Origin: a virus
IMG/VR virus record: IMGVR_UViG_3300042261_000868
Coordinates: 1-64,000 of that record
Reading direction: 5' to 3' (one strand)
Length of the DNA stretch: 64,000 bases
Position numbers and translations under genes: made by a program. Shown piece after piece: positions 1-62,577 of this stretch. The notes below the pieces were generated by a model. That model worked only from the letters and a program-made list of their open reading frames with translations. It made no database searches and had not been told where the DNA came from. Position 1 is the stretch's first letter. Each line of letters begins with the position of its first letter.

Positions 1-663
1 ACCAACTTCTCCCAAATATTCCCAATTCTAACAAAAACTGGAGTTGTTTGGAATTATATTGGTGGACCAAAGGAGTCTTTGCCTGGTCAGCAGTCTAATT
101 TAGCAAGACAAAAAGATTTATCTGGTAGGGACGCATACGGCAATGAAAGTGCTAGAGAATATCAGCCAGCAATACCCAATATCCCAGACGGTATTCAGAC
201 TCAAGTTTCAAAGACTGATCTTGGAAACTTGAGTGCTGAAGATAGGAAGGTCTTACAAAGTCAACAAAATCAACAGCCTCAAATGCCAGCTATGGCTCCA
301 AATATGACTCCACAACAAATGATGCAGATGATGCAGATGATGATGGCAACCATGATGCAGAACGGTGGTCAAATGCCAGCCGCCCCTAGTCCCGCTATCA
401 TGCAAGATACCAGAAGCATTCATGAACTTGGTGTCGAGGATCGTGCTATCATTGAAAGCAATGTGACTCCACTTTCAAAAGAAGAAAATGACCCAGAATT
501 ACAAAAGCAAATTCAAGAAATGAAAGAAAAAGGAAGTAAGGGAATGGATGTTAATGTGCTTGATGATGCTATAGATCCAGAAGAAATGGCTAGAATGGCT
601 AAGATGACACAATCCATTACTCCAACTAATCCAGAAAACGCACCACCGAGAAGGAAAAGATAA
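1..663 (+). CDS. Hypothetical protein, 5'-truncated, with Met/Gln-rich low-complexity segment
   Basis: Frame 1 is open from base 1, so the TTG at 79 is probably not the true start; contains QQMMQMMQMMMATMMQ; stop overlaps next start (TAATG). Confidence 0.7.
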   Translation, partial: TNFSQIFPILTKTGVVWNYIGGPKESLPGQQSNLARQKDLSGRDAYGNESAREYQPAIPNIPDGIQTQVSKTDLGNLSAEDRKVLQSQQNQQPQMPAMAPNMTPQQMMQMMQMMMATMMQNGGQMPAAPSPAIMQDTRSIHELGVEDRAIIESNVTPLSKEENDPELQKQIQEMKEKGSKGMDVNVLDDAIDPEEMARMAKMTQSITPTNPENAPPRRKR

Positions 664-1082
664 TGCGAAAGGGTATAGAAAAAAAGAAGAAAGATGGAAG
701 TCCGTTCTACAAGGTAATTGAAGACATTCGATTCAATAAAAACGGAAATCTACTTGATGATGACGAGAATCTAAAAGCTTTTACAAACTTTATGGCATTG
801 AGATTCTTGTCTATGGATAGGGATAATATTGAGCTAACAAATATGTTGAATCAATTCCAAGGAGTTTTGGATAAGAAATCAATGTATGATTTACTTGTTG
901 ATATGATACCCCCAAAGCAAGGGTTTATTAAGTATGTGTCTAATAAGAAAAAAGAACATGAGTATATTCCTTTTATCTGTGAATACTACCAATGCTCCCC
1001 CAAAGAGGCAGCAGAATATATAGACCTAAAAGGTGAGGAATGGGCAAAAGAAATCGCCAAGGAACACGGCGGGAAGATATAA
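663..1082 (+). CDS. gp62: T4 gp62-like clamp loader small subunit
   Basis: NFMALRFLS...TNMLN...LDKKSMYDLL...EYYQCSPKEA matches the gp62 pattern; lies directly before regA, as in T4-like phages. Confidence 0.8.
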   Translation: MRKGIEKKKKDGSPFYKVIEDIRFNKNGNLLDDDENLKAFTNFMALRFLSMDRDNIELTNMLNQFQGVLDKKSMYDLLVDMIPPKQGFIKYVSNKKKEHEYIPFICEYYQCSPKEAAEYIDLKGEEWAKEIAKEHGGKI

Positions 1083-1085
1083 ATA
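1078..1085 (+). promoter_or_regulatory. T4-type late promoter TATAAATA upstream of regA
   Basis: Exact TATAAATA about 55 bp before the regA start. Confidence 0.5.
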
Positions 1086-1138
1086 AAAGCTACTTATGTG
1101 GGGCTGAAACACAGTCCACTGACATGTGAAGGGACTTT

Positions 1139-1540
1139 ATGAGTGAAGAAAATTTTGATTTTGGCATAAGAGTTGAACTACTTGTTGATGAACCAATGGT
1201 ACACGAAAACCTTGAAAGAATAGGTATCGTTAATAAACAAGATAAAATAATTTATCCTAGTTGCTACCTAAGAAAACAACAAGCTAAAGATGGCTCTGCT
1301 GAGTATGTTATAGTCCACTTTAAGGAACTCTTTGCCCTCCAAGGCAAACCAAGTACCTTTAATAAACTTGACGCTATTCGTCGTAATACAATTGTTTATT
1401 GCTTACAGAAGTGGAATCTTGTCAAAGCAATAAATCCAGAAGATATCTCACAGATAACAAAGAAGAAGATTGATGTTATCAAACACTGTAATAAATCTCA
1501 ATATCAAATAATTCATAAATTTAGACATAATAGACAGTAA
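1139..1540 (+). CDS. regA: RegA translational repressor
   Basis: ENLERIGI...IYPSCYL...YVIVHFKELFALQGK...RRNTI...KWNL, the RegA signature. Confidence 0.9.
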   Translation: MSEENFDFGIRVELLVDEPMVHENLERIGIVNKQDKIIYPSCYLRKQQAKDGSAEYVIVHFKELFALQGKPSTFNKLDAIRRNTIVYCLQKWNLVKAINPEDISQITKKKIDVIKHCNKSQYQIIHKFRHNRQ

Positions 1541-1545
1541 ACTAC

Positions 1546-1573
1546 TTGAATTTTAATTTCAAGGACTTATAAT
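1546..1573 (+). promoter_or_regulatory. sigma70-type promoter (TTGAAT-16-TATAAT), likely leaderless primase mRNA
   Basis: TTGAAT 1546-1551, TATAAT 1568-1573; ATG at 1580 with no Shine-Dalgarno in between. Confidence 0.55.
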
Positions 1574-1579
1574 ACTCTT

Positions 1580-2656
1580 ATGAAGCTCCCTAGTTACATT
1601 GTTCAAAACTTATTCTATAGACTTGGTTTAGATGCCGAGCCAGTTAAGTCTTCAAGTATATTCGTTCACAAGGCTAAATGCCCTTTGTGTGCCGATCATG
1701 CTCAACGTCTATATCTAAGAGAGTATTCAAGCTTCTACAGTGTTAAGTGTCATAACTGTGGCTACAATGGAAACTTTGAGAGTTTTTTAAAAGAGAATTA
1801 TTCTAACGAATACGAAGAGTTAAGACCTTTTATTTTAGAATCAATTAAAGACGGATCTATTTTCGCAAAAAGAAAGTGCCTTGGTGTTAATCAGTTAACT
1901 CCATCTAATGTAGCCACCAGTGATCTTATTGATGTTCGTCTTAAAATGTATTTAAAAGAACATGCTTTCCAAATTAATAAGAAACAAGATTCAGTTAAGA
2001 AGGAAGAGCTTCGTAAAAGAATCCTTAAGTATCTTAAGGGTAGAAAGATACCAGAATCAATCTACAATGACTTCTATTGTATGCTTAAAGGTCCATTGAG
2101 GGGTTATATTGGTATTCCCTTCTTTGATAAGAACAAAGAGAACCTAGTCCACATTCAAGGTCGTTTATTCATCAAGATTGGAGAAGGCGATCATCCCAAA
2201 TATATGTTCCTTAAAGATAAGATAGACGGCATAGAGCTAGATAGTAAAGAAATATGGGGACTTTGGAGAACCAACCCTGCCAAGCCAGTTATTATCTGTG
2301 AAGGAACTTTGGATGCTTGTGCTTTTGAGCATGGTGTGGCTACTTGTGGTGCAACTATGGGTGATAACTATATTGAGATAATTAAGAAGCAATTCCCCAA
2401 CAGAATTTGGTGTATTGATAGTTTCTGGACCGATATAGAAGGTAGAAAGTTAACCATCAAATTACTTGAAATGGGCGAGAGATGCTTCATCTTACCTCAG
2501 TCTTCGTTTGTTAAAGATGCTAATGAATTACTTTGTAAGGTACTTGGCACAGAATATATAACAGACGAGATAATAGAAGAGTACACCTACACTGGTCGTT
2601 TCGGGTTAATCAAACTCCGCACGATGGAAGTTACTAGTTTATCCCAAAATATTTAA
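1580..2656 (+). CDS. gp61: T4 gp61-like DNA primase
   Basis: Zn finger CPLC...CHNC; IPFF...IQGR; KY; TOPRIM ICEGTLDA; KDANE. Confidence 0.85.
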   Translation: MKLPSYIVQNLFYRLGLDAEPVKSSSIFVHKAKCPLCADHAQRLYLREYSSFYSVKCHNCGYNGNFESFLKENYSNEYEELRPFILESIKDGSIFAKRKCLGVNQLTPSNVATSDLIDVRLKMYLKEHAFQINKKQDSVKKEELRKRILKYLKGRKIPESIYNDFYCMLKGPLRGYIGIPFFDKNKENLVHIQGRLFIKIGEGDHPKYMFLKDKIDGIELDSKEIWGLWRTNPAKPVIICEGTLDACAFEHGVATCGATMGDNYIEIIKKQFPNRIWCIDSFWTDIEGRKLTIKLLEMGERCFILPQSSFVKDANELLCKVLGTEYITDEIIEEYTYTGRFGLIKLRTMEVTSLSQNI

Positions 2657-2663
2657 CTCTTTT

Positions 2664-2672
2664 TGTTATAAT
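2664..2672 (+). promoter_or_regulatory. Extended -10 promoter (TGTTATAAT) for the gmd operon
   Basis: TGnTATAAT followed by GAGGGAG RBS and ATG at 2691. Confidence 0.5.
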
Positions 2673-2690
2673 TACTCTCTGAGGGAGTTT

Positions 2691-3758
2691 ATGTCAAAAA
2701 AAGCTTTTATAACAGGTGCCAACGGCCAAGACGGATCGTATCTCATTGAATTGCTTCTTGAAAAAGGTTACGAGGTACACGGTATCATAAGAAGGTCATC
2801 TGTTTTCAATACACAGAGAATTGAGCATCTTATGGAGAACCCAGAGATTTATAATAAGTCTCTCTTTATCCACTATGGGGATGTTACCGATCCAGTTAAT
2901 ATAAACCAATTAATCTCTTCTATTCAGCCAGATGAGGTCTATAATCTAGCCGCCCAAAGCCATGTTAAAGTGTCTTTTGAAGTCCCTTATTACACCGCAC
3001 AGACAGATGCCATAGGTACTTTAAATGTCCTAGAAGCCGTAAGGAACCATTGTTCCAAGGCAAGGGTCTATCAAGCCTCCACAAGTGAATTATATGGTGG
3101 AATGGGCTACAACATGCCAGCAACGGGCTATACCGAAGAATCCCCAATGCACCCCAGGTCGCCTTATGGGTGTGCTAAGTTGTATGGTTTATGGATTGTA
3201 AAAAACTATAGAGAAGCTTATGGGATGTTTGCTTGTAATGGCATTCTATTTAACCACGAAAGCCCCCGTAGAGGCGATACCTTTGTAACCAAGAAGATTA
3301 CTAATTGGATGTCTAAATTTAGGACTGAAACTCTTAAATCAAGTTGCTGGGAGTTGCCACCGCTTGAGCTTGGAAACCTTAATGCCAAAAGAGATTGGGG
3401 TCATGCCAAGGATTATGTTGAAGCAATGTGGCTAATGCTCCAGCAAGACAAACCAGTAGATTATGTAATAGCAACTAATGCAACATATTCCGTTAAGGAC
3501 TTTATAAACGAATGCTTTGAGCAACTCGCATGGAACAATCATATCTGTTGGGAAGGAGAAGGTCTTAATGAGAAACTTCTTTGGAATACAAACGGATGTC
3601 AAACAGATGGATTGCCTCTTGTTGTCGTAAACCCCAAATACTTTAGACCGTCTGAGGTTGAAGTGCTGCTTGGAGATGCTTCCAAGGCGCAGAAGGAACT
3701 TGGGTGGAAGCCCAAATATAATTTTAAGGAACTAGTAAGGGATATGTTAAATGGATAA
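2691..3758 (+). CDS. gmd: GDP-mannose 4,6-dehydratase
   Basis: GANGQDGSYL, NLAAQSHV, YQASTSELYG, PRSPYGCAK, FNHESPRRG, RDWGHAKDY. Confidence 0.97.
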   Translation: MSKKAFITGANGQDGSYLIELLLEKGYEVHGIIRRSSVFNTQRIEHLMENPEIYNKSLFIHYGDVTDPVNINQLISSIQPDEVYNLAAQSHVKVSFEVPYYTAQTDAIGTLNVLEAVRNHCSKARVYQASTSELYGGMGYNMPATGYTEESPMHPRSPYGCAKLYGLWIVKNYREAYGMFACNGILFNHESPRRGDTFVTKKITNWMSKFRTETLKSSCWELPPLELGNLNAKRDWGHAKDYVEAMWLMLQQDKPVDYVIATNATYSVKDFINECFEQLAWNNHICWEGEGLNEKLLWNTNGCQTDGLPLVVVNPKYFRPSEVEVLLGDASKAQKELGWKPKYNFKELVRDMLNG

Positions 3759-4680
3759 ACAAAATAATATAGTAGTTTTCGGTAGTAGTGGTCTTGTTGG
3801 ATCTGCTATTGCTAGAAATCTTGCAATAAAAGGATACAAAAACATCTACACCCCTTCGCGGAAAACGGTAAATCTATTAAATAAACCAGAAATTTGTGCA
3901 TACTTGAGTGAAAATGATGTGGGATATGTTTTTTTGGCGGCAGCTAAAGTTGGTGGGATTGCTGCCAACATGAAAGAACCAGCAAGTTTTGGACTTGAAA
4001 ATGGCTTAATAAACCTCAATGTAATTGATTGTTGCTATTTAACTAAAGTTAAAAAATTATTATTTTTAGGTTCAAGTTGTATATATCCAAAGAATTGCCC
4101 TCAACCAATGAAGGAGGAGTATCTCTTAGAAGGGAAATGTGAACCAACCAACGAGATGTATGCTTTATCAAAAATTTATGGCTTAAAACTATGCGAAGCA
4201 TATAATAAGCAATACGGTTGTAATTTTATATCTTGCCAACCAAGTAACATTTATGGCATAGGGGATCATTTTGATTCGGAAAACAGTCATGTTGTTAGTG
4301 CATTAATTTCAAAATTCCACAAAGCAAAAATAAACAATGACCCATTTATAACATTATGGGGAACTGGTTCTGCTATGAGAGAACTTCTTTATGTTGAAGA
4401 TTGTGCTGATGCTTGTATATCCTTAATGGAGAATTATAATAACCCACAGTTCATAAATATTGGTACTGGAATAGATATCAGTATAAGAGATTTAGCGAAT
4501 ATGATAAAGGGAATAGTCGGATACCAAGGCTTAATCCAATGGGATAGTTCAAAACCAGACGGCATGTATAGGAAAATATTAGATGTATCTAGGATACACG
4601 AATTTGGTTGGAAACATAAAACAAATCTTCAAGAAGGGTTACAAAAGACTTATGAATGGTACTTGGGAAACAAAAAATGA
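3751..4680 (+). CDS. fcl: GDP-L-fucose synthase / GDP-L-colitose synthase (Fcl/ColC epimerase-reductase)
   Basis: GSSGLVGSA, LAAAKVGGI, LGSSCIYP, EPTNEMYALSK, SHV, WDSSKPDG. Confidence 0.92.
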   Translation: MDKQNNIVVFGSSGLVGSAIARNLAIKGYKNIYTPSRKTVNLLNKPEICAYLSENDVGYVFLAAAKVGGIAANMKEPASFGLENGLINLNVIDCCYLTKVKKLLFLGSSCIYPKNCPQPMKEEYLLEGKCEPTNEMYALSKIYGLKLCEAYNKQYGCNFISCQPSNIYGIGDHFDSENSHVVSALISKFHKAKINNDPFITLWGTGSAMRELLYVEDCADACISLMENYNNPQFINIGTGIDISIRDLANMIKGIVGYQGLIQWDSSKPDGMYRKILDVSRIHEFGWKHKTNLQEGLQKTYEWYLGNKK

Positions 4681-5483
4681 TTAATGTGGTTGTGTGGTCA
4701 AAAAATAGAGCATGTCAATTGGACTTGACTTTAAGCAGTTATAAAAAATATTTTAGTGACTGGCAAAAATGCCAAGTTTCAATAATTTACACATACACCG
4801 ACAATAATTATAAAAAAGGTTACGAGTTATGTCAACAATATAATCCAGAATTTACTTGGATAAAAGAGACTGATTTTCGCCAAGACACTATTAAAGCAAT
4901 ATTCTCATCAAACCATAATTACCAAGCATTCATGGTTGATGATGATGTTTTTATTGATAAGTTCTCACTAGAAGACAAAGAATGTCAAGAATTTCTTACA
5001 AATCACTCAGTGTCGTGTTTATCTCCAAGATTGGCACCCTATGTTAACTATTGCTATACAGCAAACCAAAAACAACCACAACCAACATTTTTAATAGATA
5101 GAGATCACCTATGGGAATGGAGAGGTAAACCGTATGATTGGGGATATCCTTGGTCTGTTTCTGGGTTTCATATATTTAGAAAATCTGATTTAATTAACTT
5201 ACAAAAATTACAATTTAGGGGAGCCAATAGTTTTGAAGGTGGGTTTATATCCGCCTCCCCTTTTGTGGGCAGAGAATTGATGTCTTGCTATAAACAAGCA
5301 AAATGCATTTGTTCTACAAATAACAAAGTCCAAACAGAGAATGGAAACAGGCACGAAAACTCAGACCCGTTGGATATATTAAATTCAATTTTTTTAAATG
5401 GAAAACGGTTAGACCCAAATACCAACAATAAATATGTATTAAATATGTGCCACGGACCTTTAAAATATGAATGGAGAAAATAA
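4677..5483 (+). CDS. GT-A fold glycosyltransferase-like protein
   Basis: Start moved to ATG 4677 (ATGA overlap with fcl); VVWSKNRACQLD N-terminus; FMVDDDVF DxD motif; WGYPWS. Confidence 0.65.
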   Translation: MINVVVWSKNRACQLDLTLSSYKKYFSDWQKCQVSIIYTYTDNNYKKGYELCQQYNPEFTWIKETDFRQDTIKAIFSSNHNYQAFMVDDDVFIDKFSLEDKECQEFLTNHSVSCLSPRLAPYVNYCYTANQKQPQPTFLIDRDHLWEWRGKPYDWGYPWSVSGFHIFRKSDLINLQKLQFRGANSFEGGFISASPFVGRELMSCYKQAKCICSTNNKVQTENGNRHENSDPLDILNSIFLNGKRLDPNTNNKYVLNMCHGPLKYEWRK

Positions 5484-6649
5484 TGAAATATTCATTAGCA
5501 ACCGAAACTTGGAGCGATGAGGAAAAATTAGCTGCTAAAAAAGTAATTGATAGTGGTTTTTGTACTATGGGTAAAATAACATTAGAGTTTGAAAAAAAAT
5601 TCGCAGAAAAATTTGGGTCAAAATATGCAGTATTTTCAAACTCTGGTTCCTCCGCTAATCTTTTAGCAATAGCTGCTCTTTGTTTTAAAAAAGAGGAGGC
5701 TCTCAAACCAGGAGATGAAGTCATCGTTCCAGCAATTTCTTGGTCAACTACATACTATCCATTACAACAATATGGACTAAAATTAAAGTTTGTTGATGTA
5801 AATCTTTATGATTTTAATATGTCATTAGAGCAAGTTAAAAATTCAATAACATCTAAAACCAAAGCCATATTTGCAGTTAATTTATTGGGTATGCCTTGTG
5901 ACTTAGAGGAACTTAGAGAAATCTGTAAAGAAAAAAATATATACTTAATAGAAGATAATTGCGAAAGCATGGGAGCAACATATAACGGGAAACAATGCGG
6001 TACTTTTGGTGTAATTGGTACATTTTCGTCCTTTTTTTCGCATCATATGTGTACTATTGAGGGTGGAATAACTGTTACAGATGATGAAGAACTCTATCAA
6101 ATCATGATATCTTTAAGAGCACATGGATGGATTAGAAACTTACCAGATAAAAACCATATTTGCAACAAAACTGGAAACTTCATTGAAGATACCTTTAAGT
6201 TTGTATTGCCTGGTTACAACCTAAGACCTAATGAAGTATTTGCTGCAATAGGGTTGGAACAATTAAAGAAACTTGATAAGTTCATTCAATTTAGAAGAGA
6301 AAATTACGAATACCTTAAGAATAGAATTAATGAAATTTCAAATATTTGCTATAACTTCCAAATGTCAAATAATTCAGTTAAAAGCTCTTCTTGGTTTGGT
6401 TTTGGTTTCTTAACAAAAAACAGAAATAAACTTTCTGAATATTTGATAAAGAATAATATTGAGTGTCGCCCTATAGTTGCTGGTGACTTCACTAAGAATC
6501 CAGTAATAAAATACATGGACTATGAAATACCCTTTAGTTTAGAAAATGCTAAAGTTATAGATCAACATGGTATATTCATTGGAAATAATGGGGAAAATAT
6601 AAAATTGCAAATAGATCATTTCATCGAAGTCGTTAAGAGGTTTGAATGA
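5483..6649 (+). CDS. colD: GDP-4-keto-6-deoxy-D-mannose 3-dehydratase (ColD; DegT/DnrJ PLP fold)
   Basis: Start at 5483 (TAATG overlap); SGSSANLL, SWSTTYYPLQQYGL, EDNCESMGA, TFSSFFSHHMCTIEGG (His where aminotransferases have the Schiff-base Lys), RAHGW, FKFVLPGYNLRP, closely following E. coli ColD. Confidence 0.88.
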   Translation: MKYSLATETWSDEEKLAAKKVIDSGFCTMGKITLEFEKKFAEKFGSKYAVFSNSGSSANLLAIAALCFKKEEALKPGDEVIVPAISWSTTYYPLQQYGLKLKFVDVNLYDFNMSLEQVKNSITSKTKAIFAVNLLGMPCDLEELREICKEKNIYLIEDNCESMGATYNGKQCGTFGVIGTFSSFFSHHMCTIEGGITVTDDEELYQIMISLRAHGWIRNLPDKNHICNKTGNFIEDTFKFVLPGYNLRPNEVFAAIGLEQLKKLDKFIQFRRENYEYLKNRINEISNICYNFQMSNNSVKSSSWFGFGFLTKNRNKLSEYLIKNNIECRPIVAGDFTKNPVIKYMDYEIPFSLENAKVIDQHGIFIGNNGENIKLQIDHFIEVVKRFE

Positions 6650-7239
6650 AATTTGGTAAAACAATCCACGATTGGAATAATGCCAAAGGCGATTCAACAT
6701 TAAGACTACAGTATAATTTAACACCTAGCAGCACCGTTATAGATGTTGGTAGTTTTAAGGGGGAGTGGCTTAAGAATATAATTAATTTATATTCTTGTAA
6801 TATATTCGCGTATGAACCAACATTAGAAGGATTTGAAACAATAAAGAATCTACAAACCGAAAAAATCATAATTAAAAAATATGGTCTTTTCAATGAACGA
6901 AAAAAGATTAAAATTTCTAATAATGGAAATGCTAGTTCTATAGTAACGAGTAACGGAACAGAAGAGATTGAAGTATTAAATGTTATTGAAGAAATGCCAC
7001 TTTGGGGAAATGTAGATTTAATAAAAATAAATATTGAAGGGGCCGAATATGAACTCCTAGAGGCACTTATAGAAAATAGTAGTTTAGAAAAATTCAAGAA
7101 TCTTCAAATTCAATTTCATAAATTTGATTTCATAAGAGAGCCTTCCGAAAGAAGACAAAAAATCAGAGAAAGTCTATCAAAGACACATCATCTTACATAT
7201 GATTTTGAATTCATATGGGAGAATTGGGAAATTAATTAA
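6646..7239 (+). CDS. FkbM-family SAM methyltransferase
   Basis: VIDVGSFKG, AYEP, DLIKINIEGAEYELL, QIQFH. Confidence 0.85.
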   Translation: MKFGKTIHDWNNAKGDSTLRLQYNLTPSSTVIDVGSFKGEWLKNIINLYSCNIFAYEPTLEGFETIKNLQTEKIIIKKYGLFNERKKIKISNNGNASSIVTSNGTEEIEVLNVIEEMPLWGNVDLIKINIEGAEYELLEALIENSSLEKFKNLQIQFHKFDFIREPSERRQKIRESLSKTHHLTYDFEFIWENWEIN

Positions 7240-8089
7240 ATTCCTTCCAGATAAACTCCGCAAAGTTTACATTTGTATGTAAACGATCTATTGCGACATC
7301 TGTATTTAGTTTATATTTTTCAGAGTTATTATACACATCAACAATTAAATTAAAAAAATCACTCGCATTATACGGTGCTGTTATATGTGAATCTGCTCCA
7401 AACACATCTGAAATCTGTGTTGCTCCCCAATATATAGGAACACAACCACAAAGAACAGGATCTACAAATTTTTCGGTAATCCAGTATCTTTGTTTCATGT
7501 TCTCAATTACAATAGTATATTCATATGGTGAGAAAACTATACTTTTATCATCTACTGGTCCCTTAATTCTGCCTAAACTATCATTATATAAATGACATCC
7601 TCGCCCATATATATGTATGTCAAGGTTAGTTGCCAATATTTTCCTTATAATATTATGTCTCATTTGATGGCCTTCTAAGAACCCCTTATCAGATGCGATA
7701 ATACTCATTTTAAATTTTTTAGCACATTTGTAAGAATCTTTATTTTGTTTTAAAGGTAAATTCGGTAAAAAGGTATACCATTCTGGAGTAAATGGATATG
7801 CCATATAATTTTTGTCATATACATAATATTTCTTACAATTTAAGTTTATCCATTCAAGATGCTTTCTCATATCTATTAATTGATAAACTTCTTGGTGGAA
7901 ACCAATGACATTTTCTTTAGGAACTTTTAATTTAGGAAAGTTACCATGATTTAAGATAACCGCATGGGTATAATCATCGGTATCAACTATCTCCATATTT
8001 TTATATTTAGTTAAACCAAATCCCCAAGATTTAAAAGCATTCTTTGCTCCAGTTGAGTCACAGTAATCAGAAAATATTCGCACCTTCAT
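7232..8089 (-). CDS. GT10 (alpha-1,3/4-fucosyltransferase-like) glycosyltransferase
   Basis: YEYTIVIEN...YWITEKFVDPVLCGCVPIYWGA is the GT10 alpha-1,3-FucT motif. Confidence 0.82.
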   Translation of the reverse strand: MKVRIFSDYCDSTGAKNAFKSWGFGLTKYKNMEIVDTDDYTHAVILNHGNFPKLKVPKENVIGFHQEVYQLIDMRKHLEWINLNCKKYYVYDKNYMAYPFTPEWYTFLPNLPLKQNKDSYKCAKKFKMSIIASDKGFLEGHQMRHNIIRKILATNLDIHIYGRGCHLYNDSLGRIKGPVDDKSIVFSPYEYTIVIENMKQRYWITEKFVDPVLCGCVPIYWGATQISDVFGADSHITAPYNASDFFNLIVDVYNNSEKYKLNTDVAIDRLHTNVNFAEFIWKEFN

Positions 8090-8090
8090 A

Positions 8091-9188
8091 CTATGGGTTC
8101 CTTAACCAAGAAAAACCTTTGATATATTGTCTAAGTTCCAATTCGGACATTCTTTTTATTTTTTCAAACTCAGTTACATTAATTTGATATAAAGGATTTG
8201 AATAATAGCTATTTTGAGTTATCATATGATCCATATGATATAAATGCCCATCAATACTACCTACATTATAGTTTAATTTTTTAATTCTAGATAATCTTTC
8301 TTGATCTTCTGGACCCCAAGAAACCATATTTTCATTTTCCATCCCCGCTGCAATAAATTTTTCTTTATTCATAAAGAAACAGCCACCAGGCGGAATCCCT
8401 TGGTGTGTGATTTTTGTCATCGCATCAATCATATCCAAATCTAATGATTTGTAAAGTAATAGTAAAGAATCTTTTTCAATGTGTTTTAGTGGCTTGTTAA
8501 ATGGATAGCAGAAATCTAATTCTTTACTTCTTATTTTATTAGCAGCTTCAACATATTTTAACGGTGGCAAAAGAACATCACTATCATAGCTAACAACAAT
8601 GTCCGTTTTAACTGTTTTAGTCATAGTGTTCAAAAGTCTCGTTTTGTAAAAAAAGGATGTTTTATTTTCTAAAAACAATAAACGACAAAAACTTGACCAC
8701 TCTTGTTTCCAGAACTGTTTAATTTTCATCTCTTTATCACTCTCACAAATAATCACATTTGTATCAAAATACTTATACAAGTAATCTAGAAGAATAGTTA
8801 AGTTTTTCTTTCTATCTTCTGACTCTATGGATAATGGTATAGTGAATGTTACATCTCTCAAGTCAATTTTACTCATATGTTTCTCGCTTTTATCGTATTT
8901 AATCATTTCGTATACAATCTCATTTTCTTGGTTAATATTGGGGAATTCTTTAGATTCTTGCACAATATTAGAATTAAAATCATATTCTTCTATTTCAGTT
9001 ATAACCTCTGGTTTAGCCAATATGATGTCGGGTTCTTTTATTGGTTTGTTTATTTTTAAAAGACCACTATAACTACTTAGGATATCAGAACCTTCAATAA
9101 ATTGGTTTGGTTTAATCGTAACCTTTTTACCGTCTAACAGTATTACAATATCTTTTTTCGTAACATTTTTATATCTACTAATTCTCAT
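8091..9188 (-). CDS. GT2/GT7C-like glycosyltransferase with ~105-aa N-terminal extension
   Basis: Start 9188 (TAATG overlap); DVTFTIP, YDSDVLL, GGCFF, GMENENMVSWGPEDQE, LYHMDH. Confidence 0.82.
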   Translation of the reverse strand: MRISRYKNVTKKDIVILLDGKKVTIKPNQFIEGSDILSSYSGLLKINKPIKEPDIILAKPEVITEIEEYDFNSNIVQESKEFPNINQENEIVYEMIKYDKSEKHMSKIDLRDVTFTIPLSIESEDRKKNLTILLDYLYKYFDTNVIICESDKEMKIKQFWKQEWSSFCRLLFLENKTSFFYKTRLLNTMTKTVKTDIVVSYDSDVLLPPLKYVEAANKIRSKELDFCYPFNKPLKHIEKDSLLLLYKSLDLDMIDAMTKITHQGIPPGGCFFMNKEKFIAAGMENENMVSWGPEDQERLSRIKKLNYNVGSIDGHLYHMDHMITQNSYYSNPLYQINVTEFEKIKRMSELELRQYIKGFSWLRNP

Positions 9189-9970
9189 TACATAATCCCA
9201 GCCATCCAGCGCCAACTCTTTATATATGCTTCTAATTCCGTTTTAGACATATTTTTTACCTTAATCCATTCCTGTTCATTTTTCTGATAATAAGGGTGTG
9301 AACCATTAGAACTATTCAAACTAGACCCATGATGTAAATGTATTAAACCACCCGAGCATCTTCCAATCTTTAACCCAAGCTTTGTCGCTCTCTCATATCT
9401 CTCATTATCTTCATAACCCCATGAAACGAAATTCTCGTTCTCAAGACCCACCTTAAAGAATTTGTCCTTTGACCAGAAAACAGCCCCACCAACTGAATCT
9501 GCGGCTGGACGAAGGTTTCTACACATTGATGAATCAATAAAAGTAATAGAGTTTGTTTCTTTTACTCTATCAATGAAAGTTGGATGTAAGTCAAGGAAAT
9601 TACCGTCATAAGGATAAACAACATCTTTTTCACCAGATCGAATACTTTCTACTGCTTTAATGTAATTATCAATCGGTAGTAACACATCACAATCATAATT
9701 AACTATAATTGGGGTTGTTGTTTGCTTAGCCATATAATTTAACATCATGGTTCTATGGAAAAGTAGACTCTCTGTTTTCATAAAAATATACTTACAAGTA
9801 ATACCTTCAACATGTTGTTTAACTTTCTGTTCTCTATCCATTTCGCTAATCATAATATTTGTATTGAAATTCTTTCTTAGATAATCAATGCAAATCTTTA
9901 GGTTTCTAACTCTATCTGGTTGGTCTATTTTTACTGGAATAGTAAAAGTGACATCTGTTAAATCATGCAT
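9188..9970 (-). CDS. GT2/GT7C-like glycosyltransferase (paralog of 8091-9188)
   Basis: Start ATG 9970 (MHDLTDVTFTIP); YDCDVLL, GGAVF, ENENFVSWGYEDNE, LIHLHH. Confidence 0.82.
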   Translation of the reverse strand: MHDLTDVTFTIPVKIDQPDRVRNLKICIDYLRKNFNTNIMISEMDREQKVKQHVEGITCKYIFMKTESLLFHRTMMLNYMAKQTTTPIIVNYDCDVLLPIDNYIKAVESIRSGEKDVVYPYDGNFLDLHPTFIDRVKETNSITFIDSSMCRNLRPAADSVGGAVFWSKDKFFKVGLENENFVSWGYEDNERYERATKLGLKIGRCSGGLIHLHHGSSLNSSNGSHPYYQKNEQEWIKVKNMSKTELEAYIKSWRWMAGIM

Positions 9971-10691
9971 AGGTATACTCCACTGTGTTGAAAGGAACAT
10001 GGATTTTATTTATGGGTGCATGAAATATTTTTGCATTGTAATCTATATACTTTTGTTTATCTGATTGATTAATACAAGATTCCGAATGAATCCAATCAAT
10101 ATAATCCGAAGTTTCCATAACATGGACATGATAATTAGGATACATTTTTGCAAATGCACATCTTCTGGTGTAATCTGCATGTTCATAACCATACATCTTA
10201 TATCTTAGATCAAATCCACCCACGGCTTCAATGCATTTCTTTGACATAACCATAAGAACACCATTAACATACGCCCCTGTTATACCTAATTGGATACCCT
10301 CTGGATACTGAAGAATCTTTTGTATGTGTTTCCTATAATCGGAGACTATGTAATTGAAATGCTGCATATTAGTAACTCGTATTGCTTTTATGTAAGCATC
10401 TATCCAACCCTCTTTTTTATAAGTAATATCATCTTCGCTTATGAAAACATAATCACAGTCACTTAAATGTTTTATTAGTCTATTTTTATTAACTGGAATT
10501 CCACCATTAGGGCCGTATATGAGTCCAAAATTATCTTTAATCCATCCATAACCACTTAGATTTGTGTCATCTACACTACATATAGTCTTAATGTCATATT
10601 TTTGTCTATCTATAGTATTTAAAATGTCCTTGCAAACTTGAGTAGCCAATTCTGGTCTATTATACGAGCAAACACCTATGCCTATTTTCAT
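9963..10691 (-). CDS. GT2-family glycosyltransferase
   Basis: IGVCSYNRP, VDD, NGGIPVNKN, FISEDD, VGGFD...YGYEHADY. Confidence 0.82.
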   Translation of the reverse strand: MKIGIGVCSYNRPELATQVCKDILNTIDRQKYDIKTICSVDDTNLSGYGWIKDNFGLIYGPNGGIPVNKNRLIKHLSDCDYVFISEDDITYKKEGWIDAYIKAIRVTNMQHFNYIVSDYRKHIQKILQYPEGIQLGITGAYVNGVLMVMSKKCIEAVGGFDLRYKMYGYEHADYTRRCAFAKMYPNYHVHVMETSDYIDWIHSESCINQSDKQKYIDYNAKIFHAPINKIHVPFNTVEYTYA

Positions 10692-10712
10692 AATAACCCC
10701 TTATACCATAAT

Positions 10713-10721
10713 ATTATATCA
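10713..10721 (-). promoter_or_regulatory. Extended -10 promoter (TGATATAAT) for the minus-strand GT operon
   Basis: Plus strand reads attatatca, about 22 bp upstream of the ATG at 10691. Confidence 0.45.
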
Positions 10722-10726
10722 TTTCC

Positions 10727-10734
10727 TATAAATA
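10727..10734 (+). promoter_or_regulatory. T4-type late promoter TATAAATA
   Basis: Exact match upstream of the transglycosylase gene, though in very AT-rich DNA. Confidence 0.45.
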
Positions 10735-10797
10735 TTTTTTTTAAAAATAATATTTACTTTTAAAAAAAAATCAGTACAATGGTTGCCTGGAGAATTT

Positions 10798-11439
10798 ATG
10801 CTTAAAAATCTCACTATGATAGCTTTAATGTTATGCTCAAGTCTCATTTTCGCTTCTTGGGCTAAACCAGAGAAGCAACCAGAGGTATTTCACCCTATTC
10901 AAGACACCCCATACTCTGAAATTCGGTTTCTCAGGGATGCATATATCTTTAGGGTAAAAAACAAATTGCCTATTCCAGATTTTTATTACGATAAACTTAA
11001 TATTGATAATCCAAACACACCAAGTTGGGCCAAAAAACCCGCACAGGAACCTCTTGTTCCAGAAAGAGTCTCTCCTATCCCTGAGTGGATACTTATTGGT
11101 ATCCTTATGCGAGAAACAAGGTCTTATTATGATACAGATGGAAATATTGTTTTTATAGATAGAGCAATTGGTTCATCTGGAGAAAGAGGTCCATTTCAGT
11201 TAACCCCAATTGCATTTAAACAAATAAAGAAAAAAGGAGAAACCCACAAAAGAGTTATGTGGGATATGGTATATGCCCAAGATTTAACCGAAAGATACTT
11301 AATGTGGCTTTATAATGGTCCAGCAAAAAAGAATTGGGATATTGCAATCCGTATGTATAACGGCGGTCCATCTAGATATAGACTCCGCGCCACTTTAAAG
11401 TATTTAAAGGATGTTAAAAGGGTAGGTAATAAAAATTAA
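10798..11439 (+). CDS. Lytic transglycosylase (SLT/lysozyme-like) with N-terminal signal peptide
   Basis: GGAG RBS then ATG 10798; hydrophobic leader MLKNLTMIALMLCSSLIFASWA; GILMRETRS (catalytic E), GERGPFQL, AIRMYNGGP. Confidence 0.72.
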   Translation: MLKNLTMIALMLCSSLIFASWAKPEKQPEVFHPIQDTPYSEIRFLRDAYIFRVKNKLPIPDFYYDKLNIDNPNTPSWAKKPAQEPLVPERVSPIPEWILIGILMRETRSYYDTDGNIVFIDRAIGSSGERGPFQLTPIAFKQIKKKGETHKRVMWDMVYAQDLTERYLMWLYNGPAKKNWDIAIRMYNGGPSRYRLRATLKYLKDVKRVGNKN

Positions 11440-11449
11440 GTTCCTCCGT

Positions 11450-11457
11450 TATAAATA
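11450..11457 (+). promoter_or_regulatory. T4-type late promoter TATAAATA
   Basis: Exact match, followed by AAGGAG RBS and ATG 11484. Confidence 0.7.
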
Positions 11458-11483
11458 CATTTATAAGGTCAAGGAGAAATATT

Positions 11484-12140
11484 ATGTCTTATAACGATGA
11501 CGCAAAAATGAAGCTTCTTAAAGAGGCATGGCAGAAGATGGAAGAAGGCGATATTACATATAACGCCAAGAAAACCCCTGCCCCAGAAGGTCTTAAGGGA
11601 ACTAAGGCAACTGGAACCGCTGTTCCACAAGGTCCTGGTGCAAGAGCAACCGTTGCAAAAGCAACCTCTGGAGCTGAGAATCTCGCAGAAGGTGAAGAGG
11701 AAGATACTGGCGCTCCCGCTGGTGCTGCTGATATTGGTGCTGGCGATGCTGGTGCCGTTGATGCTGATGCTGCAATGGATGGCATTGACACCGATCCAGC
11801 AATGGGCGACCCAGCAGCCGCAGTTGGCTCCCCATGGGACCAGCTTGTTGCCGCAGTTGAACAGATGAAAGCCGCTCTTGAGGCAATTGCTGCCGAAGAG
11901 TCGGGCGAAGCCGAACATATGGGTGACGAAGATTTAGGCGCAGAAGGTGATGTTGATATGGACGGTGAAGAACCACCTATCGCAGAAGTCGCTGCTGGCT
12001 ACCTTGAAGAAGCCAAGAAAGTCATGGAGAAGAAAGCCAAGGCTGTCAAGACTGTCAAGGAAGAGAAGAAAGAAGGAGCCAAGACTGCTCCAAAAGCTTT
12101 CGGTGGAAAGCAAGCTCCTCCATTCGTCAAGAAGAAATAA
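11484..12140 (+). CDS. Acidic Ala/Gly-rich late protein with basic C-terminal tail (candidate head core/internal protein)
   Basis: Late promoter, strong RBS and own terminator; D/E/A/G-rich middle, Lys-rich end; LKE and LEE possible prohead-protease sites. Confidence 0.6.
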   Translation: MSYNDDAKMKLLKEAWQKMEEGDITYNAKKTPAPEGLKGTKATGTAVPQGPGARATVAKATSGAENLAEGEEEDTGAPAGAADIGAGDAGAVDADAAMDGIDTDPAMGDPAAAVGSPWDQLVAAVEQMKAALEAIAAEESGEAEHMGDEDLGAEGDVDMDGEEPPIAEVAAGYLEEAKKVMEKKAKAVKTVKEEKKEGAKTAPKAFGGKQAPPFVKKK

Positions 12141-12165
12141 TTAAGTAATCCCGTTATAGGATAAG

Positions 12166-12199
12166 TAAAGGTGTGGCATTTGTCACACCTTTATTTTTT
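12166..12199 (+). terminator. Intrinsic terminator
   Basis: taaaggtgtggca-tt-tgtcacaccttta followed by a T-tract. Confidence 0.8.
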
Positions 12200-12206
12200 G
12201 GTATTT

Positions 12207-12231
12207 TGGTATAATACTTAAAGTATAAATA
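12207..12231 (+). promoter_or_regulatory. Tandem promoters: extended -10 (TGGTATAAT) and late TATAAATA
   Basis: TGGTATAAT 12207-12215 and TATAAATA 12224-12231 before ATG 12252. Confidence 0.6.
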
Positions 12232-12251
12232 AGGTATCAAGGGACAACATT

Positions 12252-15200
12252 ATGATGATATTAGAAAGTGGATCTGTTGCAAAAGACAGAATTTTACAAG
12301 ACGATATAGTTAATGCTTTTAATACTGTATTAGAGATAGTTTCCTTTCTAAAAACAAACGGTTTAATAAAAGAAGACCCTCAATTCAATCTTGGTTCAAC
12401 TAAGATTGCCTATAGAATTTTCCAAAAGAAACTCAATAAGGTTATTGATGATATTGATAATGAAGACCTTAATAAAGCAGAATTAAAGAGACTTGAGGAT
12501 GGTTTTGGTGACTTAGACATTGATATTGTTTTGGTAGACGGAGTAACTCTTGATGATGTTGAGACAAAAATAACAGAGAAGTTTGGAGATAAGATTTGGA
12601 AAGTAGCGCCGAAGGGAGAAAGAGCACCAGGACAACTTCATTACGGCTTCAAAATAGGAAATAAAGTTCACCAAGTTGACTTTGTGGAACTTAAGGGTGA
12701 AGAGGATAGAAAAGTCAGAGAGTATTTCAGTGGTAGTAGTGCCACGGATGAAGCCCATGGTATCAAAGGACTCTTCAACAAAGAGATGCATTATGCTCTT
12801 TCCAATATGGTTGAACCAAACGCTATTATCAATACCTTTGCTAAAAAAGAAGGAAAACCATTCAACGATAAAGCCAAGGAATATGATATCCTTGAGAAAA
12901 AGGAACTCGCGTTTTTTACTCAAGAAATCAAAGACGAGAAAATCAGCAAAAATTATGTTGTGCAAGTTGAAGGTAAAAAATATCCAGTAGTCGCATCGAC
13001 CAAAGGCAAACTCAAGCTAGGTGGGGAAATCACCGATGAAGAAAACATTGATGTGACCCCTTCTATGGAAATAGAAGCTGCTAAAGCTTCTTTCGTGATC
13101 ATAACCAGAAGAAAAGTGAGTTTAATTGAGTCTAAATTACAAGAGAAATATGGTATCACCTTTCGTCTCTATCTCTACCGCCAGAAATTCAAAGAATCTG
13201 AAGGAAAAGTTAAAACATCTCTTGAAGCGGCACCTAAGAAGGTAGTTCTTGATTATATTCCGCTTTCAGAACCAGATAGTGTCATTAAGGTACTTTTAGG
13301 TGACAAAGCAACCACCAATGAACTTTTCAGCGCCGTAGAGACTGCTAAGTATATTGGCAAGAACTTCGCTGACGATGAGAAACTTGAGTTTTGGGATATG
13401 TTCGTTGAGCAGGCTATCGAGAAGAGAAATAAACCCCGTGTGGACAGAAAAACAAGACAACCAGTTTTAAACCCAGACACGGGAAAACCAGAAATAGTCG
13501 GACAAGTTGATGAAAAGAAATACGATGCCTCTATGAGACTCTTGGGTAAATTTATTGGAATGGATAAGATTCTTGGTGATGATTTTTATGTACTTCCAAA
13601 ATCAGACACTTCTGAAGTTGATGGGGTTATTAAAGAAACTTATAACTCTCTTGTCTTTAATGAAGCAGAATCTATTCGTACTGGCATTGGTCGCTTTGAT
13701 GGAACGGGTAAAGTTTCTGGTGATGATTTCCTCAAAGCACTCAAGGCACTTTACCCATATGTTAAGGAAGACGGTTCCCTACATCCAAACGAAGCACCAA
13801 ATATTGATATCGTAGAGAAGGTTGACTCTTCTTTTTGTCACTTCGGAGTAAATAAAGAAGGTAAATTCTTCCTTGCCTCAAGCAATAGTGGAGAAGTAAC
13901 CGAAGAAAACTTTGAACACAAATTTAAGAATAACCCAGACTTCCTTGAATCTTTCAGATTCCTCAAGGACCACAAGTTACTTCATGTTGTTTTAAAGAAC
14001 ATTTCCAAGGAAATTGGTAAACCCGTTAAGTTTGAAGCGGAGATATTACCTATTCTTACTTATACACCAGACGAAGCGGGTAATGTTACCTTCGTTGGTA
14101 CGAAGTATTCAAAGGAGAAACTTGGTGAAAAAGGTGCCTTTGTGGTGTTCAAAGCACAAGTGTATGAAGGCGATGAATGGATCAGAATCCCATCAAGACA
14201 TCAAAAGAAAATGATTTCCGATGTTGTTGATGCTGATAGTAAGGAATGGAGAATTCTTTCTAATGATGTTCATATGAAAGTTAACCAAGATGTGAATTTT
14301 GGTGTAGACTTTAATCAACTTGACAAGTACCTTGGCACCGATAGTGGCTTTAAGAATCTTCAAGACCTCATGGATGCTAAAATGACTCCAGAGAAGCGTA
14401 GAGTTAAGGAGATATTGAGTGACATAAGAGCAAAGATGCAAGTTGCTCTTGATGGTCTTTCAAATTCATTAACTTCTAATATAGGTAATGATTTTATTGA
14501 GGGAGTCGTTCTTCGCATTAAAGATGAGGACGGACAAGTAATGGAAATCAAGGGAACTTCCGAGAAGTTCTCCAAGAATAAGGAAACACTTTGGAAGCAC
14601 CGCGACCAACTTGAGGAACTTTATGATAATTTCAAGAATTCTATAAAGACTAATGTATTACACCTCAAGCTTACTACAGATCGATCCATTAACCAAACAT
14701 TCCTTGATACTCTTCAAGAATTTGACGCAAGGGGAACTTCTAAGGAAGAAGTTACTGAAAAATTCATGGTAGCAGTTATCAATAAGTTAATTGATAAAAA
14801 TGCCGATTTCTCAAATGTCAAGAAGGACGCTGTTAAAATCGTAAGAGAATATAAAGGTTCTTTAAATGGTCTTAAGCAAGACTTTAAAGCAAATGCAGAA
14901 TCGTTTGATGTTAACTCTGCTAGAAAAACCAAAGAAGCATTTAGTATCTATGGGGATAAATTTGAAACACTCTTTAATATATTATTAACTGAGAGTGACA
15001 ATGACCTCAAATATGTTTTAGATTGCTTCAATGCTATCTATGAGGGTAAAGCAAAGAACCTTTTGGGTACTTTAGAACCAGAAACCGATATACAAACCAA
15101 GAAATGCGCCCTTTGGGTGGGTCGTGCTCAACCTTGGCACAAAGGTCATGATGCAATGGTTAAAATTGGACTCAATAAGGCAGAAGTTGTTTTCGTGGTT

Positions 15201-21723: not shown

Positions 21724-22469
21724 TTAAAAGAAAACCACCAACCCAAGTACCAGAATCATCAGAACCAATGGATTATGGTTTCCTTAAGAACACCGAATTA
21801 ACTGATTTCTTTAAGCAGAATCTACATAAAATTACATCAACCAAATATCTTGAAGATATTATTAAATTTAAAGTAGGGTTTGACCTTAGTAGAAAAGTAG
21901 TTAAGTTTTCCCCCGAATTGAAAACGGGTGGATTATGTGCTAACCAAGTTCCAAACGAGATTGCTGGCTTTCTTTTCCATATCCTCACTAACCACTACAG
22001 GATTGATCGTTATATGGAAGTTGGAGTCAACATGGGCGGAACCTTTTATTTAATTGATTCCTTCCTAAGAGCAATAAACCCAAACTATGCTGGTGCGGTT
22101 GCTGTTGATAAAAAGAATGTTCTATTGGATTCTGATAATTACTTTAAAAAATATCCAACCACCAAGATACTTATTGGTGATTCAAAAAGAATGATTATCC
22201 CAGAAAAATTTGACTTGATTTTTATAGATGGCGACCACACCTATCTTGGTGCTAAGGCTGACTATTTAAATTTCAAATCTTGTTCAGATTTTATGGCATT
22301 TCACGATGTTGAAATACTCCATAGATCAACTAATGTTAAGAAGTTATGGGAAGAGATTAAGAAAGAGTATCCTAACAATACCATGGAGTTCTTTAATAAA
22401 TCCTCCGAATTTCAAACAACTTTAGGCATAGGAGTCTTAATAAAGACCAAACCTAAAGTAATGGCTTGA
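21720..22469 (+). CDS. Class I SAM methyltransferase (Methyltransf_24-like)
   Basis: Start 21720 (ATGA overlap); MEVGVNMGGT, DLIFIDGDHTY, AFHDV, VKKLWEE, GIGV. Confidence 0.82.
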   Translation: MIKRKPPTQVPESSEPMDYGFLKNTELTDFFKQNLHKITSTKYLEDIIKFKVGFDLSRKVVKFSPELKTGGLCANQVPNEIAGFLFHILTNHYRIDRYMEVGVNMGGTFYLIDSFLRAINPNYAGAVAVDKKNVLLDSDNYFKKYPTTKILIGDSKRMIIPEKFDLIFIDGDHTYLGAKADYLNFKSCSDFMAFHDVEILHRSTNVKKLWEEIKKEYPNNTMEFFNKSSEFQTTLGIGVLIKTKPKVMA

Positions 22470-22492
22470 CATTTAAGAATAATAAATATAAT
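22466..22492 (+). promoter_or_regulatory. sigma70-like promoter (TTGACA...TATAAT) upstream of the HNH gene
   Basis: Perfect hexamers at 22466-22471 and 22487-22492, but a short 15-bp spacer. Confidence 0.45.
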
Positions 22493-22522
22493 AGTGCCAC
22501 ACCCATAACAAAAGGGGGATAT

Positions 22523-23092
22523 GTGCGTTGCATGGTTCTAAATCAAGATTACCAACTGTTGAATATTGCCGAGTGGAATAAGGCTCTCAACCTTATTCTT
22601 GAAGGCAAGGTCACTGTTCTAGAGAAGTACGACACGAAGATTAACTCAGCAACACAAAGCTGGGAAATGCCAGCCGTTGTATGCTTGAATTACTTCGTTC
22701 ATGCTAAAAAGAAGAACAAAGTCTTTAATGCCCCAACAAAGAGGAACATCTTCATCAGAGATGAATACACATGTCAATACTGTGGTATCAAAGTTAGCTT
22801 GACCACTGGTACACTTGATCACGTTATGCCTCTTTCTCGTGGTGGTCCAAACACGGTTGGCAACATTGTTTGTGCATGTAAGAAGTGTAACAACAACAAG
22901 GCTGACATGACTGCTAAGGAGTTTGAGAACTGGCAAGACAAGCACACAGGCGACCATGGCTATCCTCTCAAGAACCTACCTCGCTCTCTCAATGAGGATG
23001 AGAAACTTAAGTGTATCTTGAAGTCTTACAAGAGTAAGGAAAGACTCACTTGGTTGAAATGTTTGAAGGAGCATGGTATTGAACTATGGTAA
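22523..23092 (+). CDS. HNH endonuclease (McrA-like)
   Basis: AGGGGG RBS then GTG 22523; VLNQDY, RDEYTCQYCG, TLDHVMPLSRGG, NIVCACKKCNNNK. Confidence 0.9.
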   Translation: MRCMVLNQDYQLLNIAEWNKALNLILEGKVTVLEKYDTKINSATQSWEMPAVVCLNYFVHAKKKNKVFNAPTKRNIFIRDEYTCQYCGIKVSLTTGTLDHVMPLSRGGPNTVGNIVCACKKCNNNKADMTAKEFENWQDKHTGDHGYPLKNLPRSLNEDEKLKCILKSYKSKERLTWLKCLKEHGIELW

Positions 23093-62569: not shown

Positions 62570-62577
62570 TATTTATA
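62570..62577 (-). promoter_or_regulatory. T4-type late promoter TATAAATA (minus strand)
   Basis: Plus strand reads tatttata, 10 bp upstream of ATG 62560. Confidence 0.6.

Follow-up and report, generated by a model that had tools for sequence, protein, structure and literature searches.

Colitose and other 3,6-dideoxyhexoses are immunodominant sugars of O-antigens and serve as phage receptors; to our knowledge, they have so far been treated as purely bacterial products. The colitose operons of Escherichia coli O55/O111, Salmonella O35 and Yersinia pseudotuberculosis VI share the gene order gmd-colC-colD. Here we describe a phage cassette that resembles these operons, located in the first 64 kb (termed the window, the whole stretch of DNA analysed) of the linear 80,664-bp IMG/VR viral contig IMGVR_UViG_3300042261_000868. 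The cassette comprises nine genes over 8 kb, which form two convergent operons between a primase gene and a gene for an SLT-like transglycosylase. The plus-strand operon encodes, in order, the GDP-mannose 4,6-dehydratase Gmd, an Fcl-like short-chain dehydrogenase/reductase (SDR), a 275-residue glycosyltransferase (GT), ColD and an FkbM methyltransferase, whereas the minus-strand operon encodes three GT-A glycosyltransferases and a GT10-like protein. Compared to the E. coli-type operon, the phage cassette shares the order dehydratase, reductase, ColD. Its Gmd and ColD are homologous to those of E. coli O111 (54% and 52% identity, respectively), with the same catalytic Ser-His, cofactor and GDP ligands predicted for ColD. 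However, the phage has a reductase of the Fcl clade in place of the ColC-clade enzyme, carries a GT gene inserted between the reductase gene and colD, and lacks manB/manC, wzx and wzy.

The DegT-family protein of the cassette (PF01041, E value of 6e-79 by Pfam search) is, judged from its sequence, a bona fide ColD 3-dehydratase. Search of the PDB using HMMER revealed that it matches E. coli O55 ColD (PDB 2gms/3gr9) with an E value of 2e-127 across residues 5-389, far beyond a chance resemblance. The protein contains the motif GTFSSFFSHHMCTIEGG, the first His of which aligns to the N/K residue of the H188N/H188K mutant entries 3b8x and 2r0t, and also to His188 of E. coli O111 ColD. A His in place of the Schiff-base Lys is the mark of 3-dehydratases (PMC8987622). 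Alignment of 27 homologues showed that Ser190-His191, which correspond to Ser187-His188 of ColD, are invariant, and the residues G59, S60, D162, E165, S186, R222, N250 and R333 are likewise invariant. Their counterparts in E. coli ColD are Gly56, Ser57, Asp159, Glu162, Ser183, Arg219, Asn248 and Arg331, which are reportedly the cofactor and GDP-sugar ligands in the structures of Cook and Holden. We consider it very likely that the enzyme would have ColD activity. An earlier note on this DNA had read three frames here as gmd, an Fcl-like gene and a DegT-like gene, and had taken the last for a ColD rather than a perosamine synthase on account of a His at the Schiff-base position. All three frames are present (2691-3758, 3751-4680 and 5471-6649), and the alignments to the PDB ColD chains and to O111 ColD, with a His and no catalytic Lys, bear out this reading, as does the weaker match to perosamine synthase.

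Further analysis of the plus-strand genes revealed a compact organization. The gmd gene, whose product passes the equivalog cut-off of TIGR01472 (480.2 versus 415 bits) and thereby upholds the earlier assignment, has the ribosome-binding site GAGGGAG ahead of its ATG and overlaps the fcl frame by 8 nt. An ATGA overlap joins the fcl stop to the likely GT start at 4677, and another ATGA joins the colD stop to the fkbM start. The colD gene probably starts at 5483, giving a protein of 388 residues, because this ATG overlaps the upstream GT stop (TAATG) and is preceded by GGAG. By these junctions, gmd-fcl-GT-colD-fkbM is a translationally coupled operon, in which colD lies 1.7 kb away from gmd, a linkage that is kept in relatives. 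Related loci are referred to below by L numbers. Compared to the viral contig L002, the ratio of nonsynonymous to synonymous substitution rates (dN/dS) is 0.07-0.14 for every cassette gene, including 0.089 for colD and 0.07 for the 275-residue GT, and the cassette is thus under purifying selection. ColD is the best-conserved cassette protein, with 92% amino acid identity to L002, versus 71% for the primase. In the same comparison, Gmd is 78% identical and its synonymous sites are past saturation (proportion of synonymous differences, pS, of 0.86), whereas the adjacent colD has a pS of 0.40, which suggests that gmd was replaced in a mosaic fashion within the cassette.

The best explanation for the cassette as a whole, which we consider probable on balance, is that the Fcl-type enzyme closes a colitose branch and that the encoded enzymes build a glycan. 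Gmd would act on host GDP-mannose to yield GDP-4-keto-6-deoxy-D-mannose, which the Fcl-type SDR would epimerise and reduce to GDP-L-fucose; synthesis of GDP-fucose by the phage is well supported and nearly certain. Using pyridoxamine 5'-phosphate (PMP) and its catalytic His, ColD would remove the hydroxyl at C3 from a share of the GDP-4-keto-6-deoxy-D-mannose, which gives GDP-4-keto-3,6-dideoxy-D-mannose; glutamate would regenerate ColD, with neither an Fe-S cluster nor an E3 reductase required. The ColD product would most likely be turned into GDP-L-colitose by the Fcl-type SDR, which would take the place of ColC without being its orthologue. In the cytoplasm, the five soluble GTs, one of which is GT10 fucosyltransferase-like, together with the FkbM protein would then build a small fucose/colitose glycan, possibly O-methylated, on an acceptor from the phage or the host. 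In this scheme we infer the acceptance of the 3-deoxy substrate by Fcl, the glycan itself and the glycan acceptor.

The remaining cassette proteins are consistent with such a use of the sugars. The 275-residue protein, whose gene between the Fcl-like gene and colD was missed in the earlier note, has no match in Pfam or NCBIfam; however, its Atlas model resembles viral and bacterial glycosyltransferase clusters, with TM-scores of 0.84-0.90, pointing to a predicted GT. It has orthologues in L002, L007, L008 and L170. The FkbM-family protein is a probable sugar O-methyltransferase. Alignment of the GT10-like sequence with Helicobacter pylori FucT (PDB 2nzw) gave an E value of 6e-5 over ...ENxxxxxY(V/W)(T/I)TEK...IPIYWG, and the C-terminal GDP-fucose-binding motif of the GT10 family is present in this alignment, which makes the protein a candidate fucosyl or colitosyl transferase. 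Among the minus-strand GTs, the one with the weakest family match has orthologues in L002, L007 and L010. No transmembrane segment was predicted in any of the nine cassette proteins, and no polytopic membrane protein, flippase, polymerase or priming transferase was found on the 80.7-kb contig, which represents ~34% of the genome (CheckV). Since the cassette has no transmembrane segments and the contig no polytopic membrane protein, assembly of the glycan in the cytoplasm would fit, either on protein, by analogy to chloroviruses, or on a host lipid-linked intermediate.

What the glycan is for is the point on which a rival account survives best. The cassette might serve to remodel the host surface (lipopolysaccharide or capsule), either for superinfection exclusion or for keeping progeny off debris, instead of glycosylating phage proteins, and we give this account a serious chance, although somewhat short of even. 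Sets of Gmd, Fcl and fucosyltransferase genes in T4-like cyanophages are usually read in this way (PMC9602691), and the plus-strand genes come after those for RegA and primase, which are of early/middle type, and no TATAAATA late motif precedes them. By contrast, the lack of a priming transferase, flippase, polymerase or polytopic membrane protein in the 80.7 kb and the nine soluble-looking proteins speak against this account, a weak point given that host machinery could be used and that the genome is incomplete. The absence of a TATAAATA motif upstream of the sugar cassette, unlike several neighboring genes, gives a weak hint that the cassette would be expressed early or middle. In total, 11 TATAAATA motifs were counted against 8.4 expected, without overall enrichment; a scan for sigma-70 promoters gave a number of sites equal to chance, and no convincing terminator was found within the cassette. 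As a side observation, this T4 late-promoter-like motif occurs at 1078, 10727, 11450, 12224, 29195, 39088 and 56525 on the plus strand and at 62570 on the minus strand. These sites sit 20-60 nt upstream of the genes for RegA and the SLT-like protein (the latter preceded by the site at 10727) and of those at 11484, 12252, 29219, 39119, 56549 and 62560.

The identity of the third enzyme bears most directly on the colitose branch. As references, we used the E. coli O111 O-antigen cluster for ColC and ColD, and E. coli K-12 for Fcl. The window reductase is 47% identical to K-12 Fcl and 39% to O111 ColC, and shares 55-59% identity with a large number of bacterial proteins listed at NCBI under the name GDP-L-fucose synthase. 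It is a divergent Fcl, because its score of 412.5 bits is below the NCBIfam Fcl equivalog cut-off of 500 bits (NF047922). The residues Ser108, Cys110, Tyr137, Lys141 and His180 align to Ser107, Cys109, Tyr136, Lys140 and His179 of Fcl; however, this catalytic set, which comprises the Ser/Tyr/Lys triad of an extended SDR and a Cys/His acid-base pair, is common to Fcl and ColC and does not discriminate between them. A ColD profile search retrieved 80 bacterial loci, usually in the order gmd-colC-colD, the adjacent reductases of which are only 32-42% identical to the window enzyme. In a tree of 123 rows, these reductases group with E. coli ColC into one clade, whereas the window enzyme groups with Fcl of E. 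coli K-12 and with proteins named Fcl by NCBI. A tree of 60 rows supports the ColC clade, with the window enzyme excluded, at 100/99 and the clade of the window enzyme at 100/98.

Several points weigh against the Fcl-type enzyme as the one that completes colitose. Of ten alignment columns at which Fcl and ColC each have a conserved residue of their own, eight show the Fcl residue in this enzyme and none the ColC residue. The approximately unbiased (AU) test rejects a joint clade of the window enzyme and ColC (p 0.0135; the group was named after the first tree had been seen), and by sequence the enzyme is no orthologue of ColC. In the literature, we found no published evidence for an Fcl-type enzyme that accepts GDP-4-keto-3,6-dideoxymannose. 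Moreover, only about a third of the genome is in hand, and the rest could encode a further reductase or a system for lipid-linked export. A further point comes from the viral contig L010 (IMGVR_UViG_3300047552_000157), which possesses tandem Fcl-type genes between gmd and colD (6138-8004). The downstream copy (7072-8004) is long-branched within the phage Fcl clade, sits directly upstream of colD, and fills the slot taken by the 275-residue GT in the window. It may represent subfunctionalisation towards a ColC-like enzyme; a plain Fcl could be a poor partner of ColD, and the paralogue gives a hint of an advantage in having a specialised partner. The earlier note had named the third enzyme ColC and the three genes a complete colitose pathway. 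The first label gives way to Fcl; of the second, Gmd and ColD stand by sequence, and the completeness of the pathway now rests on a presumed substrate range because its last enzyme falls outside the ColC orthologues. Its more cautious wording, that one Fcl-type enzyme could yield colitose, fucose or both, still holds as a hedge.

These points leave room for a different finishing enzyme. Gmd and Fcl would then make GDP-fucose only, and the ColD product would be finished to colitose or another 3,6-dideoxyhexose either by a host enzyme or by a reductase from the two-thirds of the phage genome that lack sequence, with the Fcl-type enzyme uninvolved. The Fcl signature, the position outside the ColC clade, the divergent paralogue beside colD in L010 and the ~34% completeness of the contig all suit this account, as does a second, larger clade of viral ColD-type His enzymes (L009, L012-L049; 42-53% identity), whose genes directly adjoin gmd but have no reductase gene of the Fcl/ColC type within 8 kb. 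Given that clade, some phages must possess other finishing enzymes. For the window itself we regard this account as rather unlikely, given how closely its Fcl-type lineage is tied to ColD. Viral members of the Fcl-type lineage share a cassette with ColD in L002, L007, L008, L010 and L170, and L002, L007, L008 and L170 retain exactly one Fcl-type gene, which lies in the same coupled operon as colD. Eight further pairs were found among the nearest database proteins, their co-location being inferred from equal-sized contigs, such that the Fcl-type subclade and ColD co-occur on at least 13 contigs. A scan of metagenomes retrieved mostly canonical bacterial gmd-colC-colD operons and one further close relative, L170.

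A minority of bacterial loci also have the order gmd-colD-fcl-type, namely the metagenome-assembled genomes (MAGs) L103, L129, L151, L152 and L163, mostly from Bacillota. Whole-genome search revealed a single Fcl-family gene in four of these five MAGs, which are possibly incomplete; the Fcl-type enzyme is therefore the only candidate partner of ColD there. These loci represent a non-canonical type of colitose cluster, seemingly not yet characterised. Altogether, GDP-colitose made by the Fcl-type enzyme remains our favored end product, with a modest lean in its direction, because a conserved and selected ColD needs a 4-reductase, for which no candidate other than the coupled Fcl-type gene is in view, and the Fcl subclade of the window is consistently linked to ColD.

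A bolder version of this proposal, which we put forward as doubtful, is that this phage lineage owns a colitose route with a deep-branching ColD and a dual fucose/colitose enzyme derived from Fcl, and that the soluble GTs of the cassette place a colitose-containing, methylated glycan on virion proteins. The Fcl-derived enzyme would then be a solution independent of ColC, which in L010 would be splitting by tandem duplication. If true, this would be a double first: a 3,6-dideoxyhexose in a viral glycan, and the synthesis of such a sugar by a phage on its own.

Two other rivals are very improbable. The DegT gene belongs to the DegT/DnrJ/EryC1 family, and its best NCBIfam model is RfbH (279 bits, far under the cut-off of 423 bits, in a library without a ColD model). 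However, the readings as an aminotransferase, for example GDP-perosamine synthase, and as an Fe-S dehydratase of the E1 type were rejected, as His occupies the Schiff-base position and the weaker PDB matches to E1/RfbH (1e-57) and perosamine synthase (1e-35) fall behind ColD by ~70 and ~90 orders of magnitude, respectively. The four-Cys [2Fe-2S] motif distinguishes E1 and SpnQ from ColD (PMC8987622), and the Cys-rich insertion CYCAPGCDNTC of E1 (reference open reading frame nearly identical to PDB 3bcx) is a gap in both the window protein and E. coli ColD. The other rival is that bacterial DNA was misassembled onto a phage contig; although the genes are bacterial in type and IMG/VR contains some host contamination, this too was rejected. 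Two independent studies recovered the cassette in metagenomes from freshwater and lakes: an 18-kb contig from one run spans 1919-13000 with zero differences, and contigs of the independent lake study bridge the primase-gmd and GT-SLT junctions. The order RegA-primase-gmd recurs in three viral contigs with ColDs 92%, 63% and 51% identical to that of the window, including L010, and primase orthologues upstream of gmd in L002, L008 and L010 mark the same genomic slot. In addition, the GC content of the cassette equals that of the remaining phage DNA. The cassette is thus real phage DNA.

Judged from its genes, the source is a distant T4-like freshwater myovirus, uncultured. The contig encodes the T4-type proteins RegA, a gp61-type primase, a gp5-like hub and a gp6-like wedge, together with a ribonucleotide reductase and an NAD-dependent ligase, whereas its baseplate protein shows only remote similarity, to those of T4-like cyanophages and pelagiphages. 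Megablast of positions 1-12000 against deposited phages gave no match, and no tRNAs were found on the contig. The coordinates of the cassette genes and their neighbors are listed in Table 1.

Table 1. Genes of the glycan cassette and its flanks, with the matches on which the predicted functions rest.
Predicted product	Position	Strand	Evidence and remarks
RegA, T4-type translational regulator	1139..1540	+	PF01818, E 1.2e-18; left context
gp61-type DNA primase	1580..2656	+	phrog_47, E 1e-42; left boundary of cassette
gmd, GDP-mannose 4,6-dehydratase	2691..3758	+	TIGR01472, 480.2 bits (cut-off 415); PF16363, E 2.5e-133
Fcl-type GDP-4-keto-6-deoxymannose 3,5-epimerase/4-reductase	3751..4680	+	NF047922, 412.5 bits
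Predicted soluble glycosyltransferase, GT-A/GT-D-like, DDD motif, 275 aa	4656..5483	+	Atlas model; likely start 4677
colD, GDP-4-keto-6-deoxy-D-mannose 3-dehydratase, PMP/PLP His-type	5471..6649	+	PDB ColD 2gms, E 2e-127
FkbM-family methyltransferase	6646..7239	+	TIGR01444, 44.6 bits (cut-off 37.7); PF05050, E 1.2e-5
GT10-like alpha-1,3-fucosyltransferase homologue	7232..8089	-	PF00852, E 2.8e-8, 34.1 bits (cut-off 23.9)
GT-A glycosyltransferase, Glyco_transf_7C-like	8091..9215	-	PF02709, E 3.8e-5; no transmembrane segment
GT-A glycosyltransferase, Glyco_transf_7C-like	9188..10000	-	PF02709, E 6e-8; no transmembrane segment
GT-A glycosyltransferase, weak Glyco_transf_7C match	9963..10691	-	PF02709, E 6.6e-4, below cut-off
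SLT-like transglycosylase, N-terminal hydrophobic segment	10783..11439	+	phrog_21776, E 2.4e-6; PF01464, E 4e-4; right boundary

Some genes outside the cassette also deserve mention. An HNH homing-type endonuclease gene (22466-23092) lies among replication genes, and a PD-(D/E)XK nuclease is encoded at 23856-24650. Near the cassette, a protein of 1597 residues (12252-17045) has a single match, to the cytidylyltransferase-like phrog_395 over residues 949-1140, and no match in Pfam. The viral locus L025 likewise has a cytidylyltransferase-domain protein close to its colD-gmd pair.

A survey of other viruses indicated that ColD-type enzymes are widespread. A profile scan of IMG/VR retrieved 565 stretches that encode a ColD relative. 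Among 85 viral loci that were inspected, a single one lacks the catalytic His; most of the loci adjoin gmd, and ~40 of the 85 encode enzymes 41-63% identical to the window ColD. By contrast, tblastn against deposited phages, a collection perhaps without the record of the window, retrieved no ColD-clade protein (best match 35%), and in the literature searched we found no paper linking colitose synthesis to a phage or virus, only incidental mentions. The rarity suggested in the earlier note is overstated: no description of a phage colitose pathway was found, but ColD-type genes beside gmd are common in IMG/VR. The viral capability is thus real, previously undescribed and not rare, and the composition of the pathway differs from the textbook one.

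On a tree of ColDs, the viral enzymes fall into three groups: the lineage of the window, the gmd-adjacent clade without Fcl/ColC, and a 'GHH' clade. The window lineage, which has Fcl-type partners, lies outside the clade of all sampled bacterial ColDs, including that of the E. coli-type operon, with 99% support for the latter clade (a quick tree with a long outgroup branch). The sister of the larger gmd-adjacent clade is the Pelagibacteraceae single-cell contig L114. At L025:7983-10159, a member of this larger clade, the neighboring genes encode GT8-like, GT29-like and cytidylyltransferase/DUF5824 proteins and several proteins without assignment. Two contigs labelled as giant-virus MAGs, L052 and L057, encode His-type DegT enzymes of 39% identity. 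As L052 combines its His-type DegT gene with gmd and an Fcl-like gene, a similar branch may be present in viruses of eukaryotes.

A phage that makes its own colitose would widen the chemistry of virus-encoded glycans past fucose and rhamnose, and would add a new class of auxiliary metabolic genes, common in aquatic viral contigs, whose annotation goes no further than 'aminotransferase'. It is likewise a natural test case for the replacement of ColC by an ordinary fucose synthase of the Fcl type, which would be useful for the enzymatic synthesis of GDP-colitose. All the enzymes belong to well-known families, and the finding extends existing knowledge rather than adding a new principle.

Comparison with other described systems revealed both shared and distinct features. 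Similar to the window, the Gmd/Fcl/fucosyltransferase sets of T4-like cyanophages such as S-SCSM1 (PMC9602691) and the GMD/GMER of chlorovirus PBCV-1 with its virus-encoded GTs combine a virus-encoded GDP-fucose pathway with soluble GTs and a methyltransferase, their likely role being a virus-directed glycan. In both, unlike the window, there is no ColD-clade enzyme and no 3,6-dideoxy branch has been described. E1 (RfbH), the CDP-6-deoxy-4-hexulose 3-dehydrase of the abequose, tyvelose and paratose pathways, resembles ColD in its use of PMP, in the His that replaces Lys and in C3 deoxygenation; however, it differs in its Cys-rich [2Fe-2S] loop and its need for an E3 reductase, and its match to the window enzyme is much weaker. 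A further parallel is the cultured Synechococcus phage ACG-2014f, whose gp223-gp225 (L169:4050-7167) are annotated merely as epimerase, epimerase and aminotransferase, but correspond by sequence to Gmd (64% identity to that of E. coli), to an enzyme of the Fcl type (49% identity to E. coli Fcl) and to a DegT enzyme of the His type, followed by a GT, a methyltransferase and another GT. Matches of this His-type DegT kind occur in 54 Synechococcus phage records. As in the window, the DegT enzyme of ACG-2014f has ColD as its best PDB match (8e-51) and lacks the Cys loop of E1. It differs in sharing only 35% identity with the window ColD, in carrying a 'GHH' motif ('FGHH') and in forming a separate deep clade, which served as the outgroup of the ColD tree, and the partner reductases of the ACG-2014f type likewise form a clade of their own, apart from that of the window.

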